DNA of 41,703 bases from Candidatus Woesearchaeota archaeon (GTDB taxonomy: Archaea > Nanobdellota > Nanobdellia > Pacearchaeales > GW2011-AR1): contig CAYSES010000002.1 of assembly GCA_964430085.1 (NCBI GenBank), positions 1-41,703 on the forward strand, in the 5' to 3' direction. The notes under the pieces were generated by a model, which ran no database searches, had not been told where the DNA came from, and saw only the letters and a program-made list of their open reading frames with translations. The translations under genes were made by a program, and so were the position numbers. Position 1 is the stretch's first letter. Every line of letters starts with the position of its first letter. Below are positions 3,977-38,017 of this stretch, in pieces.

Positions 3977-4585
3977 ATGTTATCACAAGAAGAAACAGAT
4001 GAAATAAAACAGAAGATTATTTCTCATATAGAATCTACATTTCCTGAAGAACAAAAAAGTTCAGCGATTAATCAAATTAAATCAATGAATCATGAAGAAT
4101 TTGAAAATTTTTTAAAAAGAAATAATCTCATAAAAAATGAGAATCCAGAACAACCTGAAACTGAGTGTGTCTTTTGTTCTATTGCATCTAACAAAATCAA
4201 TACTTGCATACTAGAAGAAAATAAAGATGCTGTTGCCGTCCTGGATATAAATCCTGTCTCAAAAGGACATACTTTAGTAATTTCAAAAAAGCATACAGAC
4301 ACAGTGGGTAAAGATATACTTGCCTTTGCAAATGATGTTGCTCAGAAGATAAAGAAAAAATTAAACCCAACCAAAATAGAAATTACAAGATCAAAATTAT
4401 TCGGGCATGAGGTTATCAATCTAATTCCAGTTTATAAAAATGAAAATATTAACTCAGAAAGGCACCACGCAAGTATGGAAGAGCTTGAACAAGTAAAAAA
4501 AGAATTAAAAGAAATTAAAAAAATTCTAAAACCGAAAACAGAAAAACTAAAAGATCACGTTTGGTTACCAAAAAGGATTCCATAA
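3977..4585 (+). CDS. HIT-family protein with N- and C-terminal extensions and a divergent histidine triad
   Basis: HIT core CVFCSIASNK...AVAVLDINPVSKGHTLVISKKH. The H-x-H-x-H-x-x position reads GHEVINLIP. Confidence 0.7.
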   Translation: MLSQEETDEIKQKIISHIESTFPEEQKSSAINQIKSMNHEEFENFLKRNNLIKNENPEQPETECVFCSIASNKINTCILEENKDAVAVLDINPVSKGHTLVISKKHTDTVGKDILAFANDVAQKIKKKLNPTKIEITRSKLFGHEVINLIPVYKNENINSERHHASMEELEQVKKELKEIKKILKPKTEKLKDHVWLPKRIP

Positions 4586-5410
4586 ACTTATATTAAAGAA
4601 AATTAAAAAGGCAAAAATAATCAAGCTGATAAGAAAAACTGGTGAAAAAGGAACTCCATTCCTTATCCTTACCTCTCTATATTTTTTGGATAGTTCTTTT
4701 ATTTCTTTTTTTGTGACTCCATCCCATTTAGCTTTTATTATTTTTTTCCCTATCTTAACATCTGAATAAAGCCAATCTCCTTCCCTTAAATATTTGGTTT
4801 TTATCTTTTTAACCATACATGCTTCATCAATCGCTTTGGATGCTATGTACAAGTAAGAAACAAAAAAGACAAACAATCCAAAAATGAAAAAAGTTTTTTC
4901 TAAAAACCCCAAAGATAAAAAGATTACACTGAAAAATAAGATAAAGCACATGAATCTCTTTTTTCTTTTTAATTGATTTGAAAGTTGTTTTCTAAAGGCT
5001 TTAAAATTTCTTATGCAAAGAATAAAACTTGTTGTAATTAAATAAACGAATCCTATAATTAAAAAAAGAAACAAGAAATTAAAAAAAAGTTTTACATTTA
5101 AAGATAAACTGGAATATATCGGAAGGATTGCTCCAAGCGAGATCATCAATTTAGCATCTCCCCCTGCAAAAATTCTTCCATAATAGAATAAATTTCCTAT
5201 GATGAAAAAAATTCCAAAACCGATTATACCACTGTAGAAAAAAGAAAATCCTCCCCCATTAAACAAAGAATAAAAAAATCTAAAACCTAAAGCGAATATT
5301 ACCAAAGAAAAATTTAGCCAATTAGCAATTTCCCTTGTTCTTATATCCTGTATTACAGCAAAGGTTATGTACACTAAAGCTAATATCCATAAAAAGATTA
5401 CCTCATACAT
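4565..5410 (-). CDS. archaeal prepilin/preflagellin peptidase (A24 family, PibD/FlaK-like)
   Basis: Polytopic protein with both catalytic Asp motifs (VIQDIRTREI and FAGGDAKLM). It is the last gene of the pilus operon. Confidence 0.8.
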   Translation of the reverse strand: MYEVIFLWILALVYITFAVIQDIRTREIANWLNFSLVIFALGFRFFYSLFNGGGFSFFYSGIIGFGIFFIIGNLFYYGRIFAGGDAKLMISLGAILPIYSSLSLNVKLFFNFLFLFLIIGFVYLITTSFILCIRNFKAFRKQLSNQLKRKKRFMCFILFFSVIFLSLGFLEKTFFIFGLFVFFVSYLYIASKAIDEACMVKKIKTKYLREGDWLYSDVKIGKKIIKAKWDGVTKKEIKELSKKYREVRIRNGVPFSPVFLISLIIFAFLIFFNISLWNPFW

Positions 5411-5440
5411 AAAAGGTAATACAAATTTAAATTTATAAAA

Positions 5441-5563
5441 CTATTTTGTTTTTTTAGGAAGATTCATTGTTCTCTGAATTCCACCTATTTTATATGGATG
5501 TTTTTTCTTCTCTCTTTTTTTATCTTTTTTCTTTTTCCTATTCTGAGAACAAGCATAATCCAT
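5441..5563 (-). CDS. 40-aa highly basic micro-ORF (MDYACSQNRKKKKDKKREKKKHPYKIGGIQRTMNLPKKTK)
   Basis: Hand-translated and absent from the ORF track. The ATG lies 1 nt after the stop of the upstream pilin-like gene, and TAG is at 5441-5443. No homology recognised. Confidence 0.3.
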   Translation of the reverse strand: MDYACSQNRKKKKDKKREKKKHPYKIGGIQRTMNLPKKTK

Positions 5564-5564
5564 T

Positions 5565-6017
5565 TTAAGAATTAATAATACATTTTTGGCCTTCTTCTAA
5601 ATCATTAGCCAATATGCTAACATCATATTTTCCAGATTCCAGATTCTTAACTCCAGTCTTACTATTAATTATTATATCCCCACAAGCTAGATTGCATTTA
5701 ATAGAAGGACATTCTGGAATGTTATATTTGTCAAATGCTGATATACTTGCCATAACAATACAACTAGTTTTTACTTCAAGATTATCTTCATTAGATCTCA
5801 AGGTTCTTTCTGCAGAGCAAAAACTATATTCTTGCCCCAAACCACATGTAGTCTGACAATCCTCTTTGATAGAATCAACATTAGAAGGACTGATTAATTT
5901 CTTAAGAGGATTCCACCCAAGAGCAAATCCTAAAATTAAAACAACCAAGATAATAACTCCTAAAATAAGAAGAATAAGTGTATTTGTACTTAATCCCTGC
6001 CCCCTTTTATTTAACAT
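5565..6017 (-). CDS. pilin-like protein with class III signal peptide, Cys-rich
   Basis: MLNKRGQG followed by the hydrophobic helix LSTNTLILLILGVIILVVLILGF. 9 Cys in the roughly 110-aa extracellular part. Confidence 0.65.
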   Translation of the reverse strand: MLNKRGQGLSTNTLILLILGVIILVVLILGFALGWNPLKKLISPSNVDSIKEDCQTTCGLGQEYSFCSAERTLRSNEDNLEVKTSCIVMASISAFDKYNIPECPSIKCNLACGDIIINSKTGVKNLESGKYDVSILANDLEEGQKCIINS

Positions 6018-6060
6018 ATTTAATATATGATTATTTTCTTTAAAAATGTTTTTATCTAGT

Positions 6061-6552
6061 TTAAGAATTTAGAAGTTTATACTCTCCCTTACTTTCTCTG
6101 TCGGGGCTATATTTATCAAACCATTTATTTATTTTTTTGATTATCTTTGGTTTTAGGTTTTGTATTTTATAAAATTCGCTTGGGGAGATAATCCTTAATC
6201 CTCTTTCCTTATAAAAATTATAATCTTCTTTATCTCCAAATCTAAGATATACATTTTTCCCCATTAAGATATCATCAATAGGATCAAACCTTATTCCCAT
6301 ATCAATGCAAGTTTCTTTTTTGAAAAAATTAAATTTGTTTACTTCTGTTGGGAAACTTCCGTCTAACCATACCCATTTAGAACATTCACAAACTTGCATT
6401 AAGGTATCATAAGCCATCTGTGACTTAGGATTAATAACATTATATTTTAGAGGAGTTAATTTTAATGTTGGTTTTTGTGTAAATTTTTTATTTAATGTAT
6501 TCATTAAATACCAACAAAAAAACTTTTTAAAAAGATTATGGTTCTCCTTCAT
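6061..6552 (-). CDS. hypothetical soluble protein inside the pilus operon
   Basis: 163-aa ORF with no TM segment or signal. The ATG at 6552 overlaps the upstream gene by 17 nt. An alternative ATG lies at 6504 (MNTLNKK). Confidence 0.5.
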   Translation of the reverse strand: MKENHNLFKKFFCWYLMNTLNKKFTQKPTLKLTPLKYNVINPKSQMAYDTLMQVCECSKWVWLDGSFPTEVNKFNFFKKETCIDMGIRFDPIDDILMGKNVYLRFGDKEDYNFYKERGLRIISPSEFYKIQNLKPKIIKKINKWFDKYSPDRESKGEYKLLNS

Positions 6553-7354
6553 ATTCAGCAGAAAAAGAAATTACTTCTTCAGTCCAAAATAAGAACCCTT
6601 GTGTATCTCTCTTTTCAAAATAATTTCCGCTAATTTGTTTTAGAGCGTTGTATCTTTGACTTATCTCTTCAACAAAATTATCTTGTGCAAAAAGAACATT
6701 ATCACAGCCCCATCCGTTATATCCCCTTAAAGCAGCTTCCCATTCAGAGTAAAGAATATTTTTATTTGAACATCCCTGAAAAACTTTTCCATTTTTGTAC
6801 ATATTATAATCTTCTTTTAAGATTTGAGCACCGATTTCAATATTAAGGTGGGGGTTATTAATTAATTCAGTCTTGCATTTATCTTTATCAGAGGGTAATC
6901 CATAATTTCCGCAATGGATCAGATTTATTTGCATCAGCCCAATAGAACTACTGCTGGCAGCATTAGCCTTGCAGGCTGATTCTTGCATCATTAACGCAGC
7001 TAACAACAGAGGATCATATATCCCATTTTTTGATGCTGATTCAACTATAAAATTGGCATAAGAATCACATTCATCCCCACAATAACAATTCCGGTTGATT
7101 ATGGAAGTTTTTTTTGCATAAGCAAGAGCATTCTTAACCATTACCAAAGGATCTCTAGCATTAATTCCTGTTTGTTTCTCATAAAAATAATTTTCTTCTA
7201 CTTGGGAGTTTAATTTTTTTATGATATTCACGCCAACAAAAGAATCTCTGGCTCTAAGAGTAGATAAAAAAAAACTAATTAGAGCTAATGTACAAACCAA
7301 GATAATACCAATTACCAAGATTGTTATAGAAATGTCTCCTTTTTTATTTTTCAT
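6536..7354 (-). CDS. class III signal peptide fused to a GH23 (SLT) lytic transglycosylase domain
   Basis: N-terminus MKNKKG + DISITILVIGIILVCTLALISFFL. SLT motifs occur in order: MMQESACKANA (catalytic E-S), SSIGLMQIN, AALRGYNGWG. Confidence 0.8.
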   Translation of the reverse strand: MKNKKGDISITILVIGIILVCTLALISFFLSTLRARDSFVGVNIIKKLNSQVEENYFYEKQTGINARDPLVMVKNALAYAKKTSIINRNCYCGDECDSYANFIVESASKNGIYDPLLLAALMMQESACKANAASSSSIGLMQINLIHCGNYGLPSDKDKCKTELINNPHLNIEIGAQILKEDYNMYKNGKVFQGCSNKNILYSEWEAALRGYNGWGCDNVLFAQDNFVEEISQRYNALKQISGNYFEKRDTQGFLFWTEEVISFSAEYEGEP

Positions 7355-7616
7355 CTTCTTTTAAGATGTTGTCAATTATCTCTTTACCCCTGTTATCATC
7401 CAGTTGATGTGCAAATGAAGTTTTTTCTGCTAATAAATCTACATTCTGTTCAGAATTAGGCAAGGGTAAATTCTCAACATTTATTGATTTAACTTTTGAC
7501 ATTAAAAATGTAATATAAATAAAAATCATCAATATCCCAATTATAACAATAGTTGCAACTACCCAAGAGATTGTTTCTCCAACTTGCGCTTTTTTATTTA
7601 ATTTATAATTGTACAT
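7344..7616 (-). CDS. small pilin-like protein (class III signal peptide-like)
   Basis: MYNYKLNKKA + QVGETISWVVATIVIIGILMIFIYITFLM. 11-nt overlap with the downstream gene. Confidence 0.55.
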   Translation of the reverse strand: MYNYKLNKKAQVGETISWVVATIVIIGILMIFIYITFLMSKVKSINVENLPLPNSEQNVDLLAEKTSFAHQLDDNRGKEIIDNILKEDEK

Positions 7617-8133
7617 TTTTCTCAGTCTTCCTTACAACCGCCAAAATTTTGATTATATATTGATTATTTACATCATCAAGAGAATAAAATTTCTTTTCAT
7701 TACATTTTGATAGTCTCTCTTCTTCCTTATTTTCTTGTAATGCACAACTGGTAACCCACCGGTTATCCCCGGCATCAATTTCAAGCAATGTATTTTCTAA
7801 ATCTTCTGGTTTATAAAAATCAACCTTAATATAATACTGTTCATCTTTCCATTCGCTTGAATTAAAGATTAAATGGCATTCTTCCAAAAATTCCTTTCCT
7901 GTTTTATCAATACCTTCACCATTAGAAATTATATCTGTGTTTATCCTCCCTCCGTAAGAAATGCAATTTGCAATTTGGTTAATTAACAAGTCACTTTCTG
8001 TTTCCCTAATATCATACGGAGTTCCATAAAAAATATAGACCATAGCAAAAATAGCCCCCGCTACAATAATTAAGATTGCAAACCAATATACAGATATAAC
8101 TTTGTCGCCCCTCTTATTTGGTATGTATTTCAT
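7603..8133 (-). CDS. pilin-like protein (class III signal peptide)
   Basis: MKYIPNKRG + DKVISVYWFAILIIVAGAIFAMVYIFYG. 14-nt and 4-nt overlaps with its neighbours. Confidence 0.6.
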   Translation of the reverse strand: MKYIPNKRGDKVISVYWFAILIIVAGAIFAMVYIFYGTPYDIRETESDLLINQIANCISYGGRINTDIISNGEGIDKTGKEFLEECHLIFNSSEWKDEQYYIKVDFYKPEDLENTLLEIDAGDNRWVTSCALQENKEEERLSKCNEKKFYSLDDVNNQYIIKILAVVRKTEKNVQL

Positions 8134-8519
8134 TTGTAATTGTTTATTTTGATAATATAATTTTTCTCAGGGTAAATATCAGGATAAGCAGTAACATCAA
8201 CGTCATTAAAAAAAGAATATGTATACCCGCTTTTATCGCTCAGGCGCACAGTGACTGAGTTTCCTTCTATTTTTATTATTTCATCTCTTTTTAATCCGTT
8301 TTTCTCAGCCAAATCCATTGCATCAGCCATGTTCAATTTAAGTTCCATTACTGGACGCGCTGCATCAACTAATAATGCAATGTTTTTTGCATAACTTTGT
8401 TCAAGTAAAACAGCACCGTTGCCTTGTCTAAATAAAAATAAAACAAGTATTGAAATAAAAACTATATTCAATACGATAAAAACTACATTCTCAAGCAAAA
8501 TCGCTCCCTTTTTATTCAT
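8130..8519 (-). CDS. pilin-like protein (class III signal peptide)
   Basis: The ATG at 8519 gives MNKKG + AILLENVVFIVLNIVFISILVLFLF, matching the sibling genes. A longer ATG at 8540 is also possible. Confidence 0.65.
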   Translation of the reverse strand: MNKKGAILLENVVFIVLNIVFISILVLFLFRQGNGAVLLEQSYAKNIALLVDAARPVMELKLNMADAMDLAEKNGLKRDEIIKIEGNSVTVRLSDKSGYTYSFFNDVDVTAYPDIYPEKNYIIKINNYK

Positions 8520-8553
8520 CTTAATAAAAAAGAATACCATCTACAAAACCAAT

Positions 8554-9411
8554 TTATGCAAGAGTTTTAATTGACCCGCATTTTAATTTATCAAAGTCAG
8601 CAGAATTTGCTTCAATTATCGCTGGTGAAAGGTAATCCTGTCCAGATTCCCCTTTCACAGTTGTTCCAATTACAGGACCTCCAGTTCCTCCGATAATTGC
8701 TCCTGCAATCAAACCTGCAGGACCTGCAACGAGACCTCCAAGTATCCCTCCTGCTATAGCCCACTCTTGGGAACCTACATCACTGAAAATCCCCATAATA
8801 ACATAATACTGTTTTTCAAAATTTATTTTTTCAAATTCAGCCGTGCCAGATGTCAAAGAGTCTTCTATTGATTGTACATCTTGTATACCTGAAATATAAT
8901 TTAAATAAGTTGTATCTTCATCTGGTATTTTTGTATTAGAAAGATATTCATAAAGATTCTTTTGATCTATTTGTCCATCATCAAAAATTTTGGTCATACT
9001 ATCATCAAAAGCTATCTGGGAGCAGATTGAACAATAAAGATTTGAAAAAAATTCAGTTCCAATATAATTTATTTTTCCTTCTCCAAATATCCACCAGCAA
9101 TCAGCCATCTCATCAGCTAAGATTTTATATGTGTCATCTTTTGTTTTAACTTTTTTGATTTCGGCATTTGTTACTTTTTCGCAACTCCCATCTTCAGTAA
9201 TACAAAGATAAGTTGTTTTACAATTCAACGGAGTAGCCTCTTTGGGTAAAACAACAGATCCCCTAGTAACAACGGAATTATGGCATATTTCTTTAGCACT
9301 GGTTTTTCCAAGATTAAGTCTAACTATAAAAAATAAAATAATAGCAAAACTCGCTATGAGAATAATTAAAAGAACTATCTGTTGAGTTGTGATCTCCCCT
9401 TTCTTTTTCAT
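8554..9411 (-). CDS. large pilin-like protein with Cys-rich domain and C-terminal glycine-zipper segment
   Basis: MKKKG + EITTQQIVLLIILIASFAIILFFIV. C-terminal segment WAIAGGILGGLVAGPAGLIAGAIIGGTGGPVIG. Confidence 0.65.
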   Translation of the reverse strand: MKKKGEITTQQIVLLIILIASFAIILFFIVRLNLGKTSAKEICHNSVVTRGSVVLPKEATPLNCKTTYLCITEDGSCEKVTNAEIKKVKTKDDTYKILADEMADCWWIFGEGKINYIGTEFFSNLYCSICSQIAFDDSMTKIFDDGQIDQKNLYEYLSNTKIPDEDTTYLNYISGIQDVQSIEDSLTSGTAEFEKINFEKQYYVIMGIFSDVGSQEWAIAGGILGGLVAGPAGLIAGAIIGGTGGPVIGTTVKGESGQDYLSPAIIEANSADFDKLKCGSIKTLA

Positions 9412-9458
9412 ATAATTAATTGTTTTTTATTGTTAATAAAATTAACTATAAAAAGAAA

Positions 9459-9545
9459 TCATAAAATTCCTATTTGTTTAAGCATAAAATATAATCCTAC
9501 CGCTGCTAATGCAAAAAAAACAATCCATATAATATATTTAATCAT
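9459..9545 (-). CDS. 28-aa single-TM micro-ORF (MIKYIIWIVFFALAAVGLYFMLKQIGIL)
   Basis: Hand-translated and absent from the ORF track. The ATG lies 4 nt after the stop of the upstream pilin-like gene, and TGA is at 9459-9461. Confidence 0.3.
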   Translation of the reverse strand: MIKYIIWIVFFALAAVGLYFMLKQIGIL

Positions 9546-9549
9546 TTCA

Positions 9550-10041
9550 TCAAGATCCATTTTTTTTGATTTCGATAGAACCATCGACATTTTTAATTGA
9601 AATATCAATCCCGTTCTTTTCTATTTTTATCTTTTCAAATTCCTTAAGAGTGGGGAGAACATTACACGAACCTTTTTCGTCACATCTTTTTATTTGCCAA
9701 TCAAACCAATCAGGAAAGACTTCTTCACAAATACATATACAATTTTGCCCAGTACAAAGATTAGGCTTTTTTTTATCTCCAACAAAACTAAAAATAAACC
9801 AATCAGAAGGGTTAGGCACATGAATTCCCTGTTCATTGTACTCCCCCCCATCCGCTATACGATTAATCTCCTTCATAACAATATCTTTTAAACTTGATTC
9901 AGCCTGTTTTATTTTTTCTTCGCCTGTAAACGAGTAATATAACGCAACTAAGAGGTATACTAAAAAAACAATACATATAACTGCAACTATAATCTTAAGA
10001 GTTTCAGAGCTGAGCAAAAATCCTTTTTTATCCTTATTCAT
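9550..10041 (-). CDS. pilin-like protein (class III signal peptide), Cys-rich
   Basis: MNKDKKG + FLLSSETLKIIVAVICIVFLVYLLVALYY. Cys cluster CTGQNCICICEE...RCDEKGSC. Confidence 0.65.
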   Translation of the reverse strand: MNKDKKGFLLSSETLKIIVAVICIVFLVYLLVALYYSFTGEEKIKQAESSLKDIVMKEINRIADGGEYNEQGIHVPNPSDWFIFSFVGDKKKPNLCTGQNCICICEEVFPDWFDWQIKRCDEKGSCNVLPTLKEFEKIKIEKNGIDISIKNVDGSIEIKKNGS

Positions 10042-10093
10042 TCAATTCCCCCCTAATAGGCTTCTCCGTCCTCAAATAACATATTTATCTTCC

Positions 10094-10255
10094 TCATTTT
10101 ATTAATACAACAAAAATTTGTGTAATATCCTCTGGCGAAAGACTTTTAAAAAACTCAATTACTCTATCCTTAAATACAAAAAAAACTCCTGCAACCACAG
10201 CAACAACTACAATAATCCCCAAAATTATTTTAATTAATTGTTCTGTTTCTAACAT
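10094..10255 (-). CDS. 53-aa single-TM membrane protein
   Basis: Hand-translated: MLETEQLIKIILGIIVVVAVVAGVFFVFKDRVIEFFKSLSPEDITQIFVVLIK. Its ATG shares one nucleotide with the upstream stop (TGATG). Confidence 0.4.
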   Translation of the reverse strand: MLETEQLIKIILGIIVVVAVVAGVFFVFKDRVIEFFKSLSPEDITQIFVVLIK

Positions 10256-10407
10256 CATCCCCTCCCAAAAAGACTTTTAATTTTAGCTATGAATCCTTCT
10301 CCAGTTCCCTTAAGGAAAAAAATACTAATCATTATTATTGCTAGGACAGCTAGCCCGATTAATAACCAAGGTAAATATTCTGTAACAATCCCTTTTTTAT
10401 TTTCCAT
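10255..10407 (-). CDS. 50-aa minimal pilin-like protein (class III signal peptide)
   Basis: Hand-translated: MENKKG + IVTEYLPWLLIGLAVLAIIMISIFFLKGTGEGFIAKIKSLFGRG. Same KKG motif as the larger pilin-like genes. Confidence 0.5.
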   Translation of the reverse strand: MENKKGIVTEYLPWLLIGLAVLAIIMISIFFLKGTGEGFIAKIKSLFGRG

Positions 10408-10448
10408 TAAATAAAAAAGATAAAAAGAATTAATAAATCTTTACAAAT

Positions 10449-12626
10449 TTATCCGGTTAAATTTCCCAATACAATTGATGTTAAAAGGAATAATGCAAGA
10501 GTTGCAAACAAAGCAGTTATGACATAAAGCCCGATTCCTTTCTTAAGATTAATTCCTATCTTATTTGTTTCTTCTAATTTATCTTCTCCCGAATTAATTG
10601 TTACAAGGGCTCCGGTTAGGATAAAGATTATTTCTATTAGATAGATTCCAACAACTATTTGAAGAAAATAAGGGGGGATCATTTTTGTTATATCAAAAAT
10701 ATTCAATATAGAACCAAGATTACCAAGTCCTGAAATTGATTCAGTGTTCCCGCTCAATCTTGCTATATCCAATCGTGTAAGTATTGCAGTTATCATAGCT
10801 GCTAACCCCACAACAATTCCAGATAATAAAGGGGCAAGGAAAGTCATATTGCTTTTCATATCAGAGATTATCTCTGCAAGCATGTCTCTCAATCTATTTG
10901 TAATTTTGTTTATGTTTTTTACATATTCAGAAATGCTTATCAGACTAAGAGCTGCAATGTTTAATCCTTTCTTAGCAGATTCTACAAGAATCTTCATACT
11001 TGTTGATATCAAATCAGAAGGATAATATCTTAGTGCTCCTCTTTTCTCATCAAAAATTGCCTGCTCAACTCCCATTCCCATTTGCATGATGTTATAATTA
11101 ACTCTTCTGAAAAAATCTTCAGTCTTTAATCCCTTACTTGATTCTGCTACTTTCCCAAATGCAAGTTCAGGAGGAACACCATTCCCTATTCTATTTCCTA
11201 ATTGAAATAAAGAGTTATTAAATTCAACTTCAAGTTCTTTTGTTTTTTCTCTTTCTTTAATCAATCCTTTTGTTTTTTTGTTAAAAGCGATTGAAAAGAA
11301 TGTTGCAACCCCCAATGTGAAAAAAATTCCGAATATTAATGCGCCTATTCCAAAAGGGCCTATCAGTTTTCCTCCTACATCCTTAAATCCAAATACAGAC
11401 TCATCTCCAAAGACACCTATCCCTAATTCTGAAAAGGTATAATCATGTTTCAATCCAAAAAGACTTGGAATAGGAGTATATTGGAATATCAAAGGCAAAA
11501 TTCCAATTAAAAAAAGAGGAAGACAAATCAAAAAAGCATGAATATAAGGTTTTCTGCTTTTGTATTGAGGATAAAGTGGATTTTTCTCTAAAAGTGAAGT
11601 TTCTCCATATCCTCCAGGTCTCAAAAATAAAATTTTATCTGTAAGATAAAAAACAAAGAAAGGAATTATAAGATTGAATAATACAAGAACATGATACCAT
11701 TTAAGTAAATCTCCAATCATTGCAGATGCTAATGGGAGTAATGCTAATCCAAGAGTTGGCAAAACAACCCCCAACATATAAACATTTGTAAGAGGACTTC
11801 TAACATTGTGACTAAATTTCAACATCTTGTCATAGACACCATCAAGAACCACTTGAAGGGATTTTTCAAGAGTAACAATTCTCTTAGCATTATCTGGTTC
11901 AAACAAACTGCTTTCGATTAAATGGAAGGATTCTATAAACTCTACAGAATAATCTCTCCAAGTATTAAGATAATCATCCAAACTTTCTTTTATTGTAGAA
12001 AATTTTCCTACCTCTACATTATAAAAAACTTTTTTAAAATCCAAGGCAAGAGGATATTGCAAATGCTGGGATGCAAAAGATATTGCTTTTTCCAAATTAG
12101 GCGTGTGTCTCATATAAACTACTATATACAAAATAGCGGGAACCATTTGAGATGATGCTTTAAGCCTCCATTTATTTGCCAATCGCGCAGGATAACCATT
12201 CGTAAAATAAAAAAGAAATAAACCAAAAATAATCACAAGGAAAAAAAAGAAAAAAGGAAATTCTTCAAAGCCACCTTTAAACAAGGCAATCGCAACAGAT
12301 ACTAAAAGTCCAAGCATAAAAACTCCAATAAAAACCATTATACTAAGAGTGGCAGGTTGCCATGGTTCAAGGTCAAGATGGGCAATATCTAATTGTCTTT
12401 TAATTTTTGCGGCATCTTTTTCAGGTACTTTTAATTTTAATGTATTTCCAAGGGTGCGACATAATTTTTCATACCTTGTTAATTCGGGGGCAAGCTCTCC
12501 TTTAAATTTTGTATAACTTTGACTATAATTAACATTTTCTACATTAGTAGTTTTTATACTTTTTTCAATTCGGGCGGCATGTCTTTTAAGAATTTCATCT
12601 ATATTTGGTTTTTTATAGGGTTCCAT
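10449..12626 (-). CDS. type IV pilus/archaellum-type assembly platform membrane protein (FlaJ/TadC/PilC-like)
   Basis: 725-aa polytopic protein with two cytoplasmic T2SSF-like helical domains (PLALDFKKVFYNVEVGKFSTIKESLDDY and GVPPELAFGKVAE...VNYNIMQMGMGVEQAI), each followed by TM bundles. Same operon as the ATPase. Confidence 0.7.
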   Translation of the reverse strand: MEPYKKPNIDEILKRHAARIEKSIKTTNVENVNYSQSYTKFKGELAPELTRYEKLCRTLGNTLKLKVPEKDAAKIKRQLDIAHLDLEPWQPATLSIMVFIGVFMLGLLVSVAIALFKGGFEEFPFFFFFLVIIFGLFLFYFTNGYPARLANKWRLKASSQMVPAILYIVVYMRHTPNLEKAISFASQHLQYPLALDFKKVFYNVEVGKFSTIKESLDDYLNTWRDYSVEFIESFHLIESSLFEPDNAKRIVTLEKSLQVVLDGVYDKMLKFSHNVRSPLTNVYMLGVVLPTLGLALLPLASAMIGDLLKWYHVLVLFNLIIPFFVFYLTDKILFLRPGGYGETSLLEKNPLYPQYKSRKPYIHAFLICLPLFLIGILPLIFQYTPIPSLFGLKHDYTFSELGIGVFGDESVFGFKDVGGKLIGPFGIGALIFGIFFTLGVATFFSIAFNKKTKGLIKEREKTKELEVEFNNSLFQLGNRIGNGVPPELAFGKVAESSKGLKTEDFFRRVNYNIMQMGMGVEQAIFDEKRGALRYYPSDLISTSMKILVESAKKGLNIAALSLISISEYVKNINKITNRLRDMLAEIISDMKSNMTFLAPLLSGIVVGLAAMITAILTRLDIARLSGNTESISGLGNLGSILNIFDITKMIPPYFLQIVVGIYLIEIIFILTGALVTINSGEDKLEETNKIGINLKKGIGLYVITALFATLALFLLTSIVLGNLTG

Positions 12627-12699
12627 TTTCCTCTTCTTTAACTAATAAAACAAAAATAGAATTAATAAATGTTTAGAAAAAATTAAGAAATTTTATTTT

Positions 12700-13056
12700 T
12701 TAAAGAGCCTTGGAATTATTCAACGGGGTTATTTCGTTTTCTTTTTCTTTAAAATTTAATCTATCAAATAATGAATGTTTATAAGTAAATTCATTCTCTT
12801 CATAAAGGTGGTTACGATTCTTGTCCTCTTGGGTCGCCATATGTTCCCATATTATACTTCCCCTATCGTTAACACCTATTGGAAGATTAAAAAATCTTAT
12901 ATCTCCGATATTATCATTATCAGTATCATATTCAGTAACAAGAAAAGGTCCAGCAGGATATGTAAAAAGGATTCTATATTCAGTGATATTGGGTAATGTC
13001 TTACATCCAAATAAAAAAGGAAGTGCTCCAATTAATAACAAATTTCTTAATTTCAT
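12700..13056 (-). CDS. putative lipoprotein
   Basis: Signal peptide with a lipobox-like LFGC (MKLRNLLLIGALPFLFGC). Asp-rich loop YDTDNDNIGD. ATGA overlap with the upstream gene. Confidence 0.5.
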   Translation of the reverse strand: MKLRNLLLIGALPFLFGCKTLPNITEYRILFTYPAGPFLVTEYDTDNDNIGDIRFFNLPIGVNDRGSIIWEHMATQEDKNRNHLYEENEFTYKHSLFDRLNFKEKENEITPLNNSKAL

Positions 13057-13547
13057 TTTGAATTGCTCATTTGTTTTTTCTTAAGATAAAAAAATGCAAA
13101 AACTAATCCACAAACGAAAAAACATAATCCAATCCATTTAAAATTATCAGGAGTAATCCCAGCAACGGCATTTCCTGTTAAATTAAAAGACACAAAGAGC
13201 AATGCAAGAGCAAGTGTAAGTATAGAACTTGTTGCTAAAGAAAGTCTCCCATACATTCCTTTCAATGGTTTATTCGTTGCAAGTTTTGCCTCTATTGAAC
13301 TTATTTTTTTTATTAATCTATTTTTTTCAATTGCAGATTCCGCTTCTTTTACTGCGAATCTATAGTCACGTTTAGCACATCTAAGAGTATCTTCTATTGA
13401 ATAAATACTTGGTTTCTTTGTAGAAAGAAACCATTCATCTCCAGCTTCTTCATAAATCTTAAAAGCATCTTTAAACCCATGGGAACTTGCCTTTCTTGCT
13501 CTTCTCTCCAATTTTAATGCATTTTCGTAATGACTAACCATATTCAA
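13053..13547 (-). CDS. membrane protein (cytoplasmic helical N-domain plus 2 C-terminal TM)
   Basis: The ORF-track start at 13547 is TTG. The first ATG is at 13541 (MVSHYE...). No recognised motif. Lies between the ATPase and the platform. Confidence 0.5.
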   Translation of the reverse strand: MNMVSHYENALKLERRARKASSHGFKDAFKIYEEAGDEWFLSTKKPSIYSIEDTLRCAKRDYRFAVKEAESAIEKNRLIKKISSIEAKLATNKPLKGMYGRLSLATSSILTLALALLFVSFNLTGNAVAGITPDNFKWIGLCFFVCGLVFAFFYLKKKQMSNSK

Positions 13548-13576
13548 ACTAAATTAATTAACTTTAAATAATTTTT

Positions 13577-15859
13577 CTAAAATTTCTTTTTCTTAATTTC
13601 ATCATTTAACCACTTCTGCCATGCAGGAAACACTCTTTCTCCAAGAGGAAGCCCTATCTCTTGTCTAATACTATCAGAGATTTCATGAAATAAATGATTA
13701 GATAATGTATTAAATGGAGCTTCTAAAATTTGATTGTAGCCTGTTTTCTGTGCAACTTCAGTAATCTCTTTTTTTATCTTACCCCTTAAAAGGATATTGT
13801 CATAAATAGCATCCCAATTTCCTGCCCACCCTTTTACATTAGAAGCTATTCCTTTTATAATCTCACTGTCTCCATTAATTAAATCATCACTGGGTTTCAG
13901 ATCATCTTTTTCTATATCATAATTAAGAAGGTCAACAAATCCCTTCTCTAATTGGGGATCATCTTTCCAATGTTTTCTTACTTCTGAAAGTTGGACCACT
14001 CTTCTCATTGAATGCAACCCATCAGCAGTCTTTATAGGATTACACACCACAATTATATCAGTGGCTTTAAAACTAGTCGCCGGAACTTCCAAATCATTTA
14101 CAACTCTATCAAAAACGCCATAAGGGCTTGCGCCATGTATTGTCCCAGCCACAACATTTGCCAAAGCACCAACCCTCATTGCTTCATAAAGCGCCTTAGC
14201 TTCAGTACTTCTTACTTCACCGATGATTAAACAACTATCTCCCAGTCTCAAACTTGTCCTGATTCCGTCATCTGCAGAAACTTCAGTCGTAGTTTTTAAT
14301 AATGCAGATCGAACTTTCATCCTAAGGATATCATATTCCAGTTTTCTCAAAGACTCAACAGGCAATTCTAAAGAATCCTCAATAACAATAATTCTGTTTT
14401 TAGGAACAATCTCAAGCATCAAGCTTCCAAGCAAAGAAGTTTTTCCTGAACTTCTTGTTCCTGCAACCAAGAGTGTTCGTGCTCCATCAATAAGAAAACT
14501 TAATAATCCTGCAGTAAAAGAATTCAACATTCCATTTTTCACAAATAAGGGCAATGTCCAGGGATCTTCTCTGTGCCTTCTAATAGCATATGCTAATCCG
14601 TCAGGCGAAAGGGGATTTTGTATTATAGCAATTCTCGCTCTCATTTTTCCGACTTCTAATTGGGTGTCTAGTATAGGATTTGCTTCGTCCAACGGTCTTC
14701 CAGAAATCATTCTGAACTTTGCTGCCCATGAATCAATATCTGCTTGACTAGGAAGAATGTTTGTAGAACACTCTCCATAATCTTGATGCCTAACAAAAAT
14801 GTTAGTCATAGGAATTGGAGCATTCAAAAAAATGTCCTGTAATTTCTTATCTTGTAAAATAACTTCAACAAGCCCAAACCCAATTGTTTGTCTGACAAGA
14901 ATCGTAGCAAGTTTATTTAAATCAAGATAATTCAATTTTATTTGTTGTGATTGAGCTAAATCTTGGAGTAGGTCTTTTGCAATGTTAAAAAAAACATTTC
15001 TTATTCTTTCAATATCAGTAAATTCCTCTGCTTTTGGTTGATGTTCAATTAAAACACCTCTCGCCAAATTCAAAAGCATATTATAATCTTCATCAAGAGA
15101 AGTTTCAGGAGGATTTAAATGATAGACAAATTTTGATTCATCTTTTCTTTTTAAAATTGTAACAATTGAGAGATCATATTTTTCGCCTATTTCATATTGG
15201 TCAATAATTTCAGCATCTTCAGGAAGGTCATAAACTAATCTTGTAAATGTAAAATTAGGGATTACATCTGGTTTGAATATTCTATGATATATTTCTCTGT
15301 CACCTTTTCTGTAATCATCAAAATAAGGAAGAATTGCCTGTATTAGTTTTGTATTTTGCAAAAGAGAAGAGATACGTTCAAGAAAATATACATAACTTTC
15401 TTGATCATTTTTATATTGCACTGAAATTTTATCAAGCAAGATTTTAGCCTGAATAATATCTTTTTTGATTTCAAAATATGCTGCAATAGGATCTTGTCTT
15501 AACAATAATAAAAAAGAAAAAATTTCATTATATCTCTGATTAAAAAATTGGGGATGTGAAGTAACAAGTTTCCCTTGAGAAAGTATTTTTTCTTGTTTAA
15601 GGAAAAAAACATAAAGTTGAGAAATTTCTAATAAAATTGCTGTCTCCTTAAAATCATAATTATAATTTTTTTGTTGAACAAAAATAATTCTTGAAACATT
15701 TGGATTTTCTATTAAGGCATCAACAGTTCTCCCCATTACTTCAGGATAATCAGATAAGTTAGGCACATAAGGCGCTCCGAGATAATCAATATAAAGAACA
15801 TCTTCTCCGCCTTCTCGTCTAACTTCATAAGAATATAATTTTCCCTCTTTATCTGGCAT
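13577..15859 (-). CDS. type II/IV secretion-family ATPase (FlaI/PilB/VirB11-like) with long N-terminal domain
   Basis: Walker A GTRSSGKTS, Asp box RIIVIEDSLEL, Walker B CLIIGEVRS, His box GTIHGAS. The ORF-track start at 15925 is GTG. The first ATG, at 15859 (MPDKEGK), leaves a plausible 99-nt divergent promoter region. Confidence 0.9.
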   Translation of the reverse strand: MPDKEGKLYSYEVRREGGEDVLYIDYLGAPYVPNLSDYPEVMGRTVDALIENPNVSRIIFVQQKNYNYDFKETAILLEISQLYVFFLKQEKILSQGKLVTSHPQFFNQRYNEIFSFLLLLRQDPIAAYFEIKKDIIQAKILLDKISVQYKNDQESYVYFLERISSLLQNTKLIQAILPYFDDYRKGDREIYHRIFKPDVIPNFTFTRLVYDLPEDAEIIDQYEIGEKYDLSIVTILKRKDESKFVYHLNPPETSLDEDYNMLLNLARGVLIEHQPKAEEFTDIERIRNVFFNIAKDLLQDLAQSQQIKLNYLDLNKLATILVRQTIGFGLVEVILQDKKLQDIFLNAPIPMTNIFVRHQDYGECSTNILPSQADIDSWAAKFRMISGRPLDEANPILDTQLEVGKMRARIAIIQNPLSPDGLAYAIRRHREDPWTLPLFVKNGMLNSFTAGLLSFLIDGARTLLVAGTRSSGKTSLLGSLMLEIVPKNRIIVIEDSLELPVESLRKLEYDILRMKVRSALLKTTTEVSADDGIRTSLRLGDSCLIIGEVRSTEAKALYEAMRVGALANVVAGTIHGASPYGVFDRVVNDLEVPATSFKATDIIVVCNPIKTADGLHSMRRVVQLSEVRKHWKDDPQLEKGFVDLLNYDIEKDDLKPSDDLINGDSEIIKGIASNVKGWAGNWDAIYDNILLRGKIKKEITEVAQKTGYNQILEAPFNTLSNHLFHEISDSIRQEIGLPLGERVFPAWQKWLNDEIKKKKF

Positions 15860-15958
15860 GAATAAAAAAGACGTATTAAGTTTAAAATATTTTGTATAAT
15901 TACTTTTATTTGTGTTTATAAACACAACAAATTTAAACTACTTTCACATCACCACTAT

Positions 15959-16306
15959 ATGGCGGAGGAACAACAGGATTATGCGGCTCAATATGGTGCT
16001 GAACTAAATACAAAAGTAAGAGATATAGAAGAAAAACAAAGATTATTGAAGGATAGACTTCTTTTAATAGGGCAAAACCTTATAGAATTAAAAGACAAAA
16101 CAAATTCTAAGATATTGGATATGAAAAAAGATTTGGATATAATGAAACAAAGTGTTGAAAGATTGTCTTCTTTTTTGGAGACAGTCTCAAGTGAATTTTC
16201 AAAATTTGCTAAAAAAGAGGACTTGGATATTTTGATAAAGCAAGCAAAAATGTTTCAGCCATTAGACCTTGTAACCAAACAAGAGTTAGCAAACTTAAGA
16301 AAATAA
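15959..16306 (+). CDS. coiled-coil protein, divergent from the pilus ATPase
   Basis: 115 aa with heptad-rich sequence. It shares the segment ILDMKKDLDIMKQSVERL with the next gene (IESIKKEMGMMQDSFSKM). Confidence 0.6.
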   Translation: MAEEQQDYAAQYGAELNTKVRDIEEKQRLLKDRLLLIGQNLIELKDKTNSKILDMKKDLDIMKQSVERLSSFLETVSSEFSKFAKKEDLDILIKQAKMFQPLDLVTKQELANLRK

Positions 16307-16347
16307 ATACCAGAAAAATTAAAAACATTTAAAGATTAATATAAAAA

Positions 16348-17046
16348 ATGGGGGTTTTAGAGCAAATAACAAAAATGAAGAAGGAAGGCGTTTCTGATAA
16401 TGATATTGTCAATCAATTATCCCAACAAGGAATTTCACCAAGAGAAATAAATGATGCATTAAATCAAGCACAGATTAAAGATGCTGTATCAAGATCTGAT
16501 CCAGAAGGAACAGCTTCAGTTATGCCTGGAGGTGAAGCCCCCGAAGCTCAAAATCAAGAATATGTTCCGGGAAACTATGGGAATACTCCGACACAGGGAT
16601 ATGCCCCCGCTGCCCAAGAAGAAAATTATGCTCCTCAATCTCAAGAACAGCAACAATATTATGCTCCAGAACAAGGATACGAACAGCAGCAATATGCTCC
16701 TTCAGGAATTGATACAGACAGTGTAATGGAAATTTCAGATCAAATTTTCTCTGAGAAAATAAAAAATGTTCAGAACCAACTTGACTCAACTTCAGATGCT
16801 GTGATTACATTAAAAACAAAAATAGATAATGTTTCAGACAGATTAAAAAAAATAGAAACAATAATAGATAAACTACAAATTGCTATTCTTGAAAAGATTG
16901 GTTCCTATGGGGACAATTTGGAAAGCATTAAAAAAGAAATGGGAATGATGCAAGATTCTTTCTCAAAAATGATTACACCAAAAAAGGAACAAGAAAAAAG
17001 AAAACCAGAATCTTATGAAGAAAAAGAGAAATTAAAGAAAAAATAA
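16348..17046 (+). CDS. three-part protein: small helical N-domain, Q/Y/P-rich disordered linker, coiled-coil C-domain
   Basis: N-domain ITKMKKEGVSDNDIVNQLSQQGISPREINDALNQA. The linker has four Y-A-P repeats. The C-terminal coiled coil is paralogous to 15959..16306. Confidence 0.65.
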   Translation: MGVLEQITKMKKEGVSDNDIVNQLSQQGISPREINDALNQAQIKDAVSRSDPEGTASVMPGGEAPEAQNQEYVPGNYGNTPTQGYAPAAQEENYAPQSQEQQQYYAPEQGYEQQQYAPSGIDTDSVMEISDQIFSEKIKNVQNQLDSTSDAVITLKTKIDNVSDRLKKIETIIDKLQIAILEKIGSYGDNLESIKKEMGMMQDSFSKMITPKKEQEKRKPESYEEKEKLKKK

Positions 17047-17628
17047 TTAATCGTTATCTTCTGCCCAACTACCAACAAAGGGAATAGCTTTCTGACCTTT
17101 ATTTTTACCTGAACCGGCAATTATAACTGAAATTAAAATGAACAAGAAGATTGCTCCTACAACCATTTGCCAATTATCCTCCCACCATTGTCCAGACTGC
17201 CACCCCAACGCTCCTGCAGATTGTATTATAATCAAACCTATGATTATAACTCCAACTCCAAGAAGAACATAATTAACTGCAGCACTTTTCTTTGGTGCGA
17301 AAAGTCCAACTATTATTAAGAGTCCTAGAATAATTGCCAATCCAACTCCAATCCTAGGAAAAATTTGGGAAAAAAATTCGGGAACAAAACCAAACTGCAA
17401 GGACATTAACGCAACAGCTAATGCAATAATACCATTAACCATTTTATTATCCTTGAAAACATTAACTTTAGTTAAAATTCCGAATACTAAAGCAAAGATA
17501 AGAAGAAAAGGAAGAAGGTAACTAAAAAAACCAGCTGATTCCCATTTAGAAAGTAACTCCCCAACAACCCCACTCGGAAAAGCACTTACAGTAGATGCAA
17601 CATCAAAGAACATCACCCAATTCAACAT
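17047..17628 (-). CDS. polytopic membrane protein (paralog of 17672..18175)
   Basis: Shared motif LLPFLLIFALVFGILTKVNVF versus ILPFLLIFFIVFAILEKTKLF in the neighbouring gene. Confidence 0.6.
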   Translation of the reverse strand: MLNWVMFFDVASTVSAFPSGVVGELLSKWESAGFFSYLLPFLLIFALVFGILTKVNVFKDNKMVNGIIALAVALMSLQFGFVPEFFSQIFPRIGVGLAIILGLLIIVGLFAPKKSAAVNYVLLGVGVIIIGLIIIQSAGALGWQSGQWWEDNWQMVVGAIFLFILISVIIAGSGKNKGQKAIPFVGSWAEDND

Positions 17629-20816: not shown

Positions 20817-21365
20817 ATGAAGATAACAGTTTCGGGGATGATTGGTGCTGGAAAAAGTACAGTATCTGATTATCTTGCTGATAAATTTCATTATATAAGA
20901 TACTCGTCTGGGGGAATTATGAGGAAAATGGCATCTGATAGAAACATAACCCTGTTAGACCTATCGAAAATCGCAGAAAGAGATTCATCGATAGATAGGG
21001 AGATAGATAGAATTCAAACGGAAATAGGAAAGAAGGAAGATAATTTTGTAATTGATGGGAGAATGTCGTGGTATTGTATTCCAAATTCACTAAAAATCTA
21101 TCTCGATGTTTCAGCTGAAGAAGCAGCAAGGCGAATTTTCAATGATAAAAACGCCATAAGAAAAATTGAAAAATATTCATCTGTTGAAGAACTTACCCAA
21201 CAAATTTTAGAAAGGAAAAAAAGTGAAATAAAAAGATATAGTAAATATAATATAGATATTCATGATAAAACAAATTATGATGTTTATCTTAACACAACAA
21301 ATATGGAGATTAAGGAAGTAACTGATTATCTAACAGAGGTCATTCAAAGATATATTCCGTATTAA
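20817..21365 (+). CDS. cmk: cytidylate kinase, archaeal type
   Basis: P-loop ITVSGMIGAGKST and EIDREIDRIQ, with the family's pattern and size (182 aa). AAGGAG Shine-Dalgarno lies 5 nt upstream. Confidence 0.8.
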   Translation: MKITVSGMIGAGKSTVSDYLADKFHYIRYSSGGIMRKMASDRNITLLDLSKIAERDSSIDREIDRIQTEIGKKEDNFVIDGRMSWYCIPNSLKIYLDVSAEEAARRIFNDKNAIRKIEKYSSVEELTQQILERKKSEIKRYSKYNIDIHDKTNYDVYLNTTNMEIKEVTDYLTEVIQRYIPY

Positions 21366-22284
21366 TTTTATTCTGACAATATTTACATGAATCAAAATGT
21401 TTCTTTATTGCATTAATCACATCTTGATTCCGAATATGATTCAATTTCCAATTATTTACAAGTTCCCAATCCATATCACACTTTTTTTCTGATTCAGAAA
21501 TATCTTTAAGTATTTGGAAAGTCTTTTTTTCTAAATTTGAGTCAGTCCTATAATCTCTAGGAAGAATAAAATTAACAGATGAATTAAAAGGGTTTTCTGC
21601 TCCTAAGTAAGATACACATTTATTAAAAGAATCAATGTCTCCTTTACCAAAAAGTGCGATTGCATAACCACCTCTCTGTTTTGTATATCTAAACCAATCT
21701 TTATCAGAAAGACCATCCCCAAAAATAATTGCTTTCCTGTAATTAATATAATAATCTTCCAATGAAAAATCTTTATGAAGATCTCCCCCCTTACATATTG
21801 TTTTAAGAGATTCAACTTTTCTAAATGGTTCAATAATAGACTCAATTTTATAGATGCCCTTACCATCATCACGAAATTTGCCGCTGACAATAGAAGTTAG
21901 ATAAGGAGAGATAGCGCTACCTTCAATTAAAGCAGATATCCCAACACTAATAACATGGTGTTCTAATTCAATCCCTAAGGAAGAGGCAACGTTTCCAACT
22001 CGTTCAAACCAAGTTGATAAACCTGGTGCAAGTTTAGTTTTAGGTGCAAATTCTTGTTTCATTTGCTCATTAGTAAGATTATTAAAAATTTCTTTAGAAT
22101 CTTTTAAAAATTGCCCCATCCAACCTGCACCAATGTCCCCCCCATTACATAAATTCCGATATTCATTAATATTTTTTATTCCATATTTCTTTTTTAATTC
22201 AGGAAAAAATTTCCTGAAGATAGGGAATTGTTGACATTCTTCTGTTAGTGTCATATCATAATCATAAAAAAATCCAACTCTCAT
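21340..22284 (-). CDS. HAD-superfamily hydrolase-like protein with Cys-containing C-terminal tail
   Basis: The ATG at 22284 gives MRVGFFYDYDMTL (HAD motif I DxDxT). Motif IV is FGDGLSD. The longer ORF to 22737 runs antisense into the IMPDH-like gene. Confidence 0.55.
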   Translation of the reverse strand: MRVGFFYDYDMTLTEECQQFPIFRKFFPELKKKYGIKNINEYRNLCNGGDIGAGWMGQFLKDSKEIFNNLTNEQMKQEFAPKTKLAPGLSTWFERVGNVASSLGIELEHHVISVGISALIEGSAISPYLTSIVSGKFRDDGKGIYKIESIIEPFRKVESLKTICKGGDLHKDFSLEDYYINYRKAIIFGDGLSDKDWFRYTKQRGGYAIALFGKGDIDSFNKCVSYLGAENPFNSSVNFILPRDYRTDSNLEKKTFQILKDISESEKKCDMDWELVNNWKLNHIRNQDVINAIKKHFDSCKYCQNKINTEYIFE

Positions 22285-22372
22285 AAAAAAGGGCAGATTA
22301 GTAGATTTAAAGGTTTTATTATTCTTGATATCATATAAATCTTTATAAAAAATATTCATTAGATTAAGAAAT

Positions 22373-37887: not shown

Positions 37888-37888
37888 C

Positions 37889-37917
37889 TCTCCCCCACTT
37901 TAATTTCCTATGGAAAT
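37889..37917 (-). repeat. ORB-like box 1
   Basis: The minus strand reads ATTTCCATAGGAAAT-TAAA-GTGGGGGAGA. It ends 1 nt from the orc1 ATG. Confidence 0.7.
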
Positions 37918-37989
37918 AAAAATAATTTGGAAATACCTCAACGATAATTATTTGAATAAATTATATAAATGATTATAACTACTAAGAAA

Positions 37990-38017
37990 GAAAAACACCT
38001 TTATTTCTTATGGAAAT
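37990..38017 (-). repeat. ORB-like box 2
   Basis: The minus strand reads ATTTCCATAAGAAAT-AAA-GGTGTTTTTC. Its core is exactly 100 nt from box 1. Confidence 0.65.

Follow-up and report, generated by a model that had tools for sequence, protein, structure and literature searches.

What kind of surface machine is encoded by the gene cluster at positions 4565–15859 of contig CAYSES010000002.1 (assembly GCA_964430085.1), from an archaeon labelled Candidatus Woesearchaeota and placed by GTDB in the Pacearchaeales, and which cells might it serve to engage? The window analyzed here is the whole stretch of this contig from position 1 to position 41,703 (41,703 nucleotides, nt). Pacearchaeota and Woesearchaeota are abundant lineages of which no member has been cultured, and their hosts are still to be found. 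The locus formed a single minus-strand cluster in which eight proteins with class-III-type N-termini are encoded together with an assembly ATPase, an A24 prepilin peptidase, and a platform protein of 725 amino acids (aa). We consider it probable that this cluster is the Pacearchaeota version of a conserved type IV pilus (T4P)-like system of DPANN archaea, with a Flp-like major subunit of 44 aa and minor pilins of modular build, among them one that displays an enzyme able to cleave peptidoglycan. That enzyme, a soluble lytic transglycosylase (SLT) domain fused to a pilin, is the most informative feature of the operon, and had been treated as a side item in an earlier reading made from the DNA letters without database searches (hereafter the sequence-only reading). 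A pilin-borne murein hydrolase is a concrete molecular link from a pilus to bacterial walls; it hints that these archaea use pili to engage bacteria, and it offers a handle on whether they live on them.

Gene content of the pilus cluster

The genes for the assembly machinery and the putative subunits are given below from the ATPase to the peptidase; a slash marks the predicted cleavage site of the class III signal.

13577–15859, minus strand: assembly ATPase, a 760-aa member of the GspE/CpaF/FlaI family of secretion ATPases (Pfam T2SSE, E = 3.7e-15, above cut-off)
10449–12626, minus strand: 725-aa platform protein, for which remote homology and an AlphaFold2 model predict a pair of divergent T2SSF-like domains
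10255–10407, minus strand: mini-pilin, 50 aa (44 aa mature), Flp-like G/IVTEY, class III motif
9550–10041, minus strand: pilin-like protein, 163 aa (MNKDKKG/FLL), Cys-rich mature domain; motif in 57 of 63 orthologs
8554–9411, minus strand: pilin-like protein, 285 aa (MKKKG/EITTQQ), Cys-rich, conserved tail motif; class III motif in 52 of 60 orthologs
8130–8519, minus strand: pilin-like protein, 129 aa (MNKKG/AILLEN), Glu at +5; motif in 53 of 56 orthologs
7603–8133, minus strand: pilin-like protein, 176 aa (NKRG/DKVISVYWF); motif in 46 of 51 orthologs
7344–7616, minus strand: pilin-like protein, 90 aa (NKKA/QVGET); motif in 24 of 26 orthologs
6536–7354, minus strand: modular pilin, 272 aa, class III signal and hydrophobic helix (MKNKKG/DISITILVIG), then an SLT domain (Pfam SLT)
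5565–6017, minus strand: pilin-like protein, 150 aa (MLNKRG/QGLSTN), Cys-rich; motif in 38 of 40 orthologs
4565–5410, minus strand: A24 prepilin (class III signal) peptidase, 281 aa (Pfam Peptidase_A24, PF01478, E = 4.7e-10, above cut-off)

A pilin carrying a lytic transglycosylase domain

The SLT domain of the 272-aa pilin (PF01464, E = 8.1e-15, 54.9 bits against a cut-off of 21.3 bits) spanned residues 106–214 (nt 6713–7039). Its predicted catalytic residue, Glu125, lay in a QES motif (125–126), and the E-S, GLMQ(I), and GYNGWG/YNG motifs were conserved in orthologs; by its motifs the module is a family-1 (GH23) lytic transglycosylase that is apparently active. The best NCBIfam match of this part was IagB, a protein associated with type III secretion systems (T3SS; E = 1.5e-4). 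Nothing was found when the pilin was compared with the Protein Data Bank (PDB) by phmmer, or when the SLT domain was searched against plasmids and phages by tblastn. In most relatives the orthologous pilin (KRG/DIPITILVIGV) was only 90–117 aa long and lacked the SLT domain. The window protein has the marks of a modular pilin, namely a class III N-terminus joined to a domain that is absent from the ortholog in most relatives and present on other scaffolds. A class-III-like N-terminus was found in 100 of the 112 database homologues of the SLT pilin, most of the remainder being truncated. Among these homologues, and in locus L026, SLT domains occurred on the following scaffolds.

The window's own DIPITILV-type pilin: 91 proteins, SLT at the C-terminus
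Orthologue of the 129-aa pilin: 8 proteins, SLT at the C-terminus
Orthologue of the 176-aa pilin: 5–6 proteins, SLT inserted in the globular part with sequence of this pilin on both sides
Scaffold like the 163-aa pilin: 1 protein, SLT at the C-terminus
Further pilin encoded directly after the platform gene (locus L026): 1 protein, SLT at the C-terminus

Across different relatives, at least four distinct pilin scaffolds of this operon have received the SLT domain, and the recurrent attachment of a single enzyme to several subunits of one machine speaks for selection to have it displayed on the assembled structure. Since murein is bacterial and SLT domains are reported to be normally absent from Archaea, the displayed enzyme most plausibly acts on the bacterial wall, either at cell–cell contact or on murein debris. 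One fusion protein with a pilin of the 129-aa type (P0352) carried the NCBI label 'Patescibacteria group bacterium' on what is a scaffold of the archaeal operon, and it probably derives from a mis-binned Pacearchaeota contig.

Class III signals and the subunit set

The eight class III proteins had been recognized in the sequence-only reading. We scanned the window in six frames and from all start codons for K or R followed by G or A within 20 residues of the start and then a hydrophobic stretch, defined as the best 18-residue window with a mean Kyte-Doolittle value of at least 2.0. Internal-start artefacts aside, exactly these eight genes were returned, which is far from chance. The artefacts arose from internal starts in the platform protein, in a protein with two transmembrane (TM) segments described below, and in a YdjM-family membrane protein (2153–2608), in which an internal MKHRG followed by a hydrophobic stretch mimics a class III signal; the last was discarded as a false positive of a motif-only scan.

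All eight N-termini obeyed the class III rule, with G or A at position -1, K or R at -2 and -3, and about 20 hydrophobic residues next, and the motif was kept in roughly 85–95% of orthologs in each of the eight families. Orthologous pilins were 40–60% identical at the median, and each family had a conserved mature N-terminus of its own. The distinct mature N-termini and the kept cleavage motif therefore point to eight distinct, individually maintained subunits. Profile-profile comparison bore out the further claim that the mature domains are mutually unrelated, any likeness being limited to the N-terminal 30–45 residues. A profile similarity between the 129-aa pilin and the SLT pilin was rejected as an artefact, as proteins fusing the 129-aa pilin to SLT were present in the alignment.

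The mini-pilin was the most conserved pilin (median identity 60%), with a conserved G/xxx(E/D)YLPW, and its gene always lay directly after that of the platform. In two distant relatives (L081 and L086) a tiny open reading frame (ORF) encoding a short charged leader and a hydrophobic helix was likewise found just downstream of the platform gene. The 50-aa protein, 44 aa when mature, is a candidate for the major filament subunit. Among the larger pilins, the 285-aa protein held in its C-terminal third a Gly-rich hydrophobic segment, GGILGGLVAGPAGLIAGAIIGGTGG, followed by GESGxxYLSPxIIEANSxDFxxLKC. The latter segment recurred in many orthologs, the Gly-rich part being variable, and a strict glycine-zipper pattern was present in 11 of the 60 sequences of this family, window protein counted. 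The Gly-rich segment may be a membrane-active or anchoring element. The ORF of the 129-aa pilin could be read as 136 aa, and it likely starts at the internal MNKKG (8519) that gives the shorter length.

A fused platform protein

Two T2SSF-like domains had been claimed for the 725-aa protein, and no direct T2SSF match was obtained. The window protein matched no model in Pfam or NCBIfam at lenient limits (E = 0.1 and 1), and its matches to PDB sequences were at chance level (E > 0.9), also with a profile of close homologues. An exhaustive profile search gathered a family of 1149 clusters at 50% identity with E < 1e-3, 456 of them with E < 1e-30. When 54 diverse full-length members (23–66% identical to the query) were examined, 18 matched PF00482 (T2SSF), with a best E of 3.2e-10; the matches fell in both halves of the platform, and one member scored above the gathering score. 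Comparison of the N-terminal with the C-terminal half by hhalign gave a weak alignment in register (P = 0.002, probability 13%), and the diverse profile yielded only a marginal match to EpsF among PDB sequences (E = 0.39).

An AlphaFold model built on a shallow alignment was unusable (predicted local distance difference test, pLDDT, 48), and the diverse alignment was used instead, giving a pLDDT of 86 and a predicted TM-score (pTM) of 0.84. In Foldseek searches of the PDB with this AlphaFold2 model, whole-query E values were weak, 0.09 at best and all above 0.001. For the cytoplasmic domains of EpsF and OutF, the matches had a probability of 1.00, TM-scores of 0.71–0.75, and a root-mean-square deviation of about 3 Å over about 120 columns; the PilC N-domain was matched with a probability of 0.97, and the PilC chain of the type IVa pilus machine model ranked first. 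Because T2SSF was matched in distant family members and the model matched EpsF, OutF, and PilC, the platform is, as judged from profiles and predicted structure, a fused two-domain protein of the GspF/TadBC type that standard Pfam and NCBIfam models miss. The predicted domains cover residues ~165–298 and 472–602 (nt 11733–12134 and 10821–11213), so that the two-domain claim stands by way of the distant members and the model. Platform orthologs had a median identity of 72%.

Assembly ATPase and prepilin peptidase

The motifs GTRSSGKTS, IIVIEDSLE, LIIGEVR, and GTIHGAS, on which the ATPase had been recognized, were all confirmed in its translation. Its best NCBIfam models were FlaI (5.6e-38) and TadA (5.8e-36), both far under their cut-offs, followed at a distance by the bindosome ATPase BasE (2.8e-22) and ComGA (2.3e-11). 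Among PDB proteins it matched the GspE of Archaeoglobus best (afGspE, 2oap; 1.8e-29), then CpaF (4.8e-22) and FlaI (4e-17), and about 215 extra residues lay N-terminal to the PDB-aligned part. ATPase orthologs had a median identity of 77%. The identity of the peptidase was upheld by its Pfam match together with the presence of both Asp motifs (QD and GGDAKL), and the D22 and GGD84 motifs were at least 90% conserved across 44 aligned sequences, comprising the window protein and its orthologs. A match of the peptidase to the NCBIfam FlaK model (1.3e-11) was under the cut-off.

Conservation of the cluster and its neighbours

A scan of one genome per species found this platform in ~490 species-level genomes. 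Synteny was assessed in 80 related loci, 32 of which had full 10-kb flanks. Strict collinearity was seen in about 30 of these 32, and with it the three supports of the T4P-like reading (class III motifs, a T2SSF platform, and co-localization in related genomes) were all upheld. The conserved order was ATPase, in some loci the 2-TM protein, platform, mini-pilin, and small TM protein, then the pilins (163, 285, 129, 176, 90, ~100 or 272, and 150 aa), with the peptidase last. The remaining genes of the cluster and those beyond the ATPase were as follows.

13053–13547, minus strand: putative accessory protein, 164 aa, helical N-terminal part and two C-terminal TM segments
12700–13056, minus strand: 118-aa protein with a lipobox-like N-terminus (LFGC), window-specific insert
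10094–10258, minus strand: single-TM protein, 54 aa, without a class III motif; kept in 27 loci, motif in none
9459–9608, minus strand: small TM ORF, 49 aa or shorter, reality uncertain; BLAST match in 7 loci only
6061–6552, minus strand: soluble protein, 163 aa, overlapping the stop of the SLT gene by 17 nt, window-specific insert
15959–16306, plus strand: coiled-coil protein, 115 aa, divergent from the ATPase; present in 30 of 32 loci
16348–17046, plus strand: 232-aa protein made up, from N- to C-terminus, of a small helical domain, a Q/P/Y linker of low complexity, and a coiled coil; 30 of 32 loci
17047–17628, minus strand: polytopic membrane protein, 193 aa, on weak evidence a possible accessory component; adjacent in 28 of 32 loci

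Both the soluble protein of 163 aa and the lipoprotein of 118 aa had been counted as extra components of the apparatus. Neither had an ortholog in any of the 80 related loci, and neither matched any family model searched; the two genes are therefore inserts private to this genome, and the lipobox protein is probably outside the conserved machine. The 164-aa 2-TM protein, which also matched no family model, had an ortholog between ATPase and platform in 12 of the 32 full-flank loci.

Beyond the ATPase, the two divergent coiled-coil genes (15959–17046) belong to the pilus system, because they are linked to the ATPase or platform in three different gene arrangements. Besides the arrangement in the window, homologues of both were found directly downstream of the platform gene and on its strand in L087 (E = 2.1e-11 for the 115-aa and 3.3e-7 for the 232-aa protein), and in L082, in which the ATPase was 45% and the platform 29% identical to those of the window, coiled-coil genes also flanked the ATPase, with a homologue of the 232-aa protein beside it (E = 1.9e-5). 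The 232-aa protein had 646 database homologues, and among the 120 listed the names were absent or generic automatic labels only. The bounds 4565–15859 thus hold for the minus-strand cluster and miss two system genes just outside it. The region of the 193-aa membrane protein was syntenic in the 28 loci that contained it, and a similar protein lay near the ATPase in L082 (E = 1.5e-4). In the same locus, two DUF6015 genes and a small opposite-strand gene separated ATPase and platform (5427–8294). Its pilin block included class-III-like proteins of very large size, one of 770 aa bearing a CARDB domain and others of 446 and 607 aa, from which it follows that the subunit repertoire is highly plastic between lineages.

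All ORFs listed in the sequence-only reading were recovered on the minus strand at the same positions. The spacing of 75 nt or less that it had given did not hold for two gaps, 5411–5564 (154 nt) and 9412–9549 (138 nt), unless one counts a doubtful 40-aa ORF and the small 49-aa TM ORF. The 5411–5564 spacer and the 99 nt that separate the ATPase gene from the divergent coiled-coil gene (15860–15958) were AT-rich with TATA-like boxes, several in the latter. In the former, TTTTATAAAT was situated ~25 nt ahead of the peptidase ATG. As a 154-nt AT-rich spacer with a TATA-like box precedes it, the peptidase may have its own promoter, and the boxes at the ATPase/coiled-coil spacer suggest a bidirectional promoter region.

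Proposed mechanism and alternative explanations

Prepilins would insert into the membrane, where the A24 peptidase would remove the short K/R-rich leader after G or A. A hexamer of the ATPase would then turn or push the platform, so that subunits would be extracted and their hydrophobic N-terminal helices stacked into a filament. The mature Flp-like subunit (10255–10407) would likely be the bulk subunit, and a priming or tip complex would be formed by the other seven pilins, which are larger, Cys-rich, and unrelated to one another; in this lineage the modular SLT pilin would be one of them. The filament would thereby present a peptidoglycan-cleaving enzyme to the bacterial wall, for contact, penetration, or murein harvest. 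Leader removal, ATPase-driven extraction and polymerization, and the minor-pilin tip complex are all assumed here by analogy with established T4P biology, and the adhesive function proposed in the sequence-only reading is likewise an inference. A further step, which we put forward tentatively as a possibility rather than a probability, is that the cluster encodes a cross-domain attack or attachment organelle, in which the minor-pilin tip with its transglycosylase locally opens the peptidoglycan of a bacterial host. If true, these Pacearchaeota would be episymbionts or parasites of bacteria, not of archaea, and the recurrent, independent attachment of SLT to different pilins would record past selection for this function.

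Several points weigh against a conserved filament with a displayed enzyme. Cleavage of the leaders by the peptidase is predicted from motif rules only. The role of the 50-aa protein as major subunit is assigned from position, size, and conservation alone, with no match to a Pfam Flp model. In at least one more distant lineage (L083) the platform gene stood alone, and co-localization is therefore not universal in distant lineages. An SLT ORF lay within 10 kb in only 12 of the 80 related loci, which makes the enzyme an accessory and not a core feature. Pacearchaeota also have no cultured member that would show their host or envelope.

The processed proteins could instead remain as a short envelope-anchored assembly, akin to a bindosome or pseudopilus, that would hold enzymes and binding modules, SLT among them, in place to scavenge murein debris and other nutrients, and no long adhesive pilus would be formed. 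The BasE match of the ATPase would fit, as would the murein-peptide carboxypeptidases reported in Pacearchaeota, and a 2026 census of archaeal type IV filament (TFF) systems proposes that TFF machines are 'functionalised' for scavenging by substrate-binding proteins with class III signals. However, none of the eight class III proteins matched a substrate-binding family in Pfam or NCBIfam, BasE scored below FlaI and TadA, and true filaments (Epd/Tad) typically have a tiny Flp-like subunit that lacks a globular part, so that we regard this alternative as unlikely. Far less credence is given to a competence-type filament whose DNA uptake would supply a cell of reduced metabolism with nucleotides. 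Scavenged nucleotides have been proposed to sustain Pacearchaeota, and ComGA (ATPase) and a ComGE-like model (one pilin, 0.032) were matched weakly. However, these ComG matches were much weaker than those to FlaI, TadA, or GspE, and family searches found no DNA-binding, ComEC-like channel, or nuclease gene in the cluster.

It is also very improbable, and if anything marginally more so, that the SLT pilin opens the archaeon's own wall to make way for the pilus as it is assembled. Dedicated transglycosylases of bacterial type IVb pilus, T3SS, and type IV secretion system operons (BfpH, IagB, VirB1) clear the wall for assembly; SLT genes do occur in bacterial type IVb pilus operons, and IagB was the best match of the SLT part. 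Archaea, however, normally have no murein, and SLT, reported to be normally lacking in this domain of life, would be out of place in such a role. Most relatives build the same operon without SLT, which is therefore not needed for assembly, and the enzyme is grafted onto subunits and is not a separate periplasmic protein. An archaellum, to which the top NCBIfam rank of FlaI and, in the coiled-coil protein of 232 aa, a weak match to FlaC_arch (1.3e-3) might point, has a probability close to nil. FlaI scored 131 bits against a cut-off of 550 bits, the platform was unlike FlaJ in length and sequence, and no archaellin (FlaA/B) or FlaF/G/H match was found in the cluster proteins. The exclusion of an archaellum in the sequence-only reading is thus sustained, and this alternative was rejected. 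A filament with a Flp-like main subunit and minor pilins, one of them enzyme-bearing, remains the reading we prefer.

Genomic setting

The window had a G+C content of about 30% and contained the archaeal housekeeping genes RadA, RPA, aEF-1beta, PolD DP1 and DP2, and Cdc6/Orc1. Close homologues of its proteins were in metagenome-assembled genomes of Candidatus Pacearchaeota or Nanoarchaeota. The pilus cluster is part of the conserved core chromosome and not an island. Scans of the window for tRNAs and Rfam families found nothing. The Cdc6/Orc1 gene (36673–37887) followed PolD DP1 and DP2 (31651–36671), and just past it, in 36673–41000, G+C fell to 24–27%; this low-G+C stretch could be a replication origin region. 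A 465-aa ORF without a Pfam match (21340–22737, minus strand) overlapped the start of an IMPDH/GMP-reductase gene (22373–23425, plus strand) by ~365 nt, and one member of this pair is probably spurious or shorter.

Comparison with known systems

Conserved T4P-like loci have been described in cluster-2 DPANN, including Pacearchaeota, with coiled-coil proteins, a CpaF-like ATPase, and a TadC-like platform; two such loci were distinguished, and the coiled-coil proteins were reported to resemble reovirus sigma-1 structurally (Hamm et al. 2024, PMC11291902). The same core was found here, with two coiled-coil genes adjoining the ATPase and platform (the 115-aa protein corresponding to the 'CCP' genes of that account), whereas the eight-pilin block, the dedicated peptidase, and the SLT pilin are absent from the main text of that description. 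Its five supplementary files that were searched contained nothing on Pacearchaeota, TadC, or transglycosylase. In the searchable literature we found no account of an eight-pilin block with a dedicated peptidase in Pacearchaeota, nor of pilin-borne SLT domains. A groundwater preprint reported that T4P components are missing from DPANN genomes, and used pili to tell CPR (candidate phyla radiation) bacteria from DPANN in cryogenic transmission electron microscopy; in contrast, the operon described here is a complete pilus machine, and its platform is present in the species-level genomes counted above.

Among the closest parallels are the Epd pilus of Methanococcus maripaludis and the bacterial Tad (Flp) system, 'system 1' of the archaeal TFF, which like the window locus are single-unit multi-gene clusters with many pilins. 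The subunit set had been called unusually large, which is overstated, as pilin-rich Epd clusters of eleven genes have been described (preprint 10.64898/2026.04.22.720090). Shared features are a main subunit without a globular domain (a candidate here), a dedicated peptidase, and a CpaF/TadA-like ATPase. The mini-pilin has analogues in pilins of the Flp/EpdE type, in which a globular domain is missing, although the E-Y pair of its G/xxx(E/D)Y stands one residue earlier than in the Flp motif G/xxxxEY. The window system differs in having one fused 725-aa platform where the others have two platform genes (TadB and TadC, EpdJ and EpdK), in the long N-terminal extension of its ATPase, and in its pilins, none of which, the mini-pilin included, matched a pilin or Flp model in Pfam or NCBIfam.

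Large extracellular murein transglycosylases of up to 3,000 aa have been found in Pacearchaeota and Woesearchaeota, read as acting on bacterial walls, and taken to indicate that the hosts are bacteria (PMC8204110, 2021; Vigneron et al. 2022, PMC9723730). Those enzymes have no pilus link, whereas the window protein is 272 aa long, pilin-anchored, and encoded within a pilus operon. The 2026 census, which discusses class-III-signal substrate-binding proteins, does not discuss transglycosylases or peptidoglycan. Modular type IV pilins are known from bacteria, for example PilB and PilC of Streptococcus sanguinis, and have been surveyed there with peptidase modules among others (Raynaud et al. 2021, PMC8179133). 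Both kinds join a pilin module to a separate functional domain; here the host is archaeal, the signal is of class III, the domain is that of a lytic transglycosylase, and this one module recurs, through repeated grafting, on several pilins of a single operon. The core of coiled-coil proteins, ATPase, and platform was already known for DPANN, and what is added here is the recognition of the platform and the recurrent SLT-pilin graft, by which the modular pilin principle is extended to archaea and to a wall-degrading enzyme.

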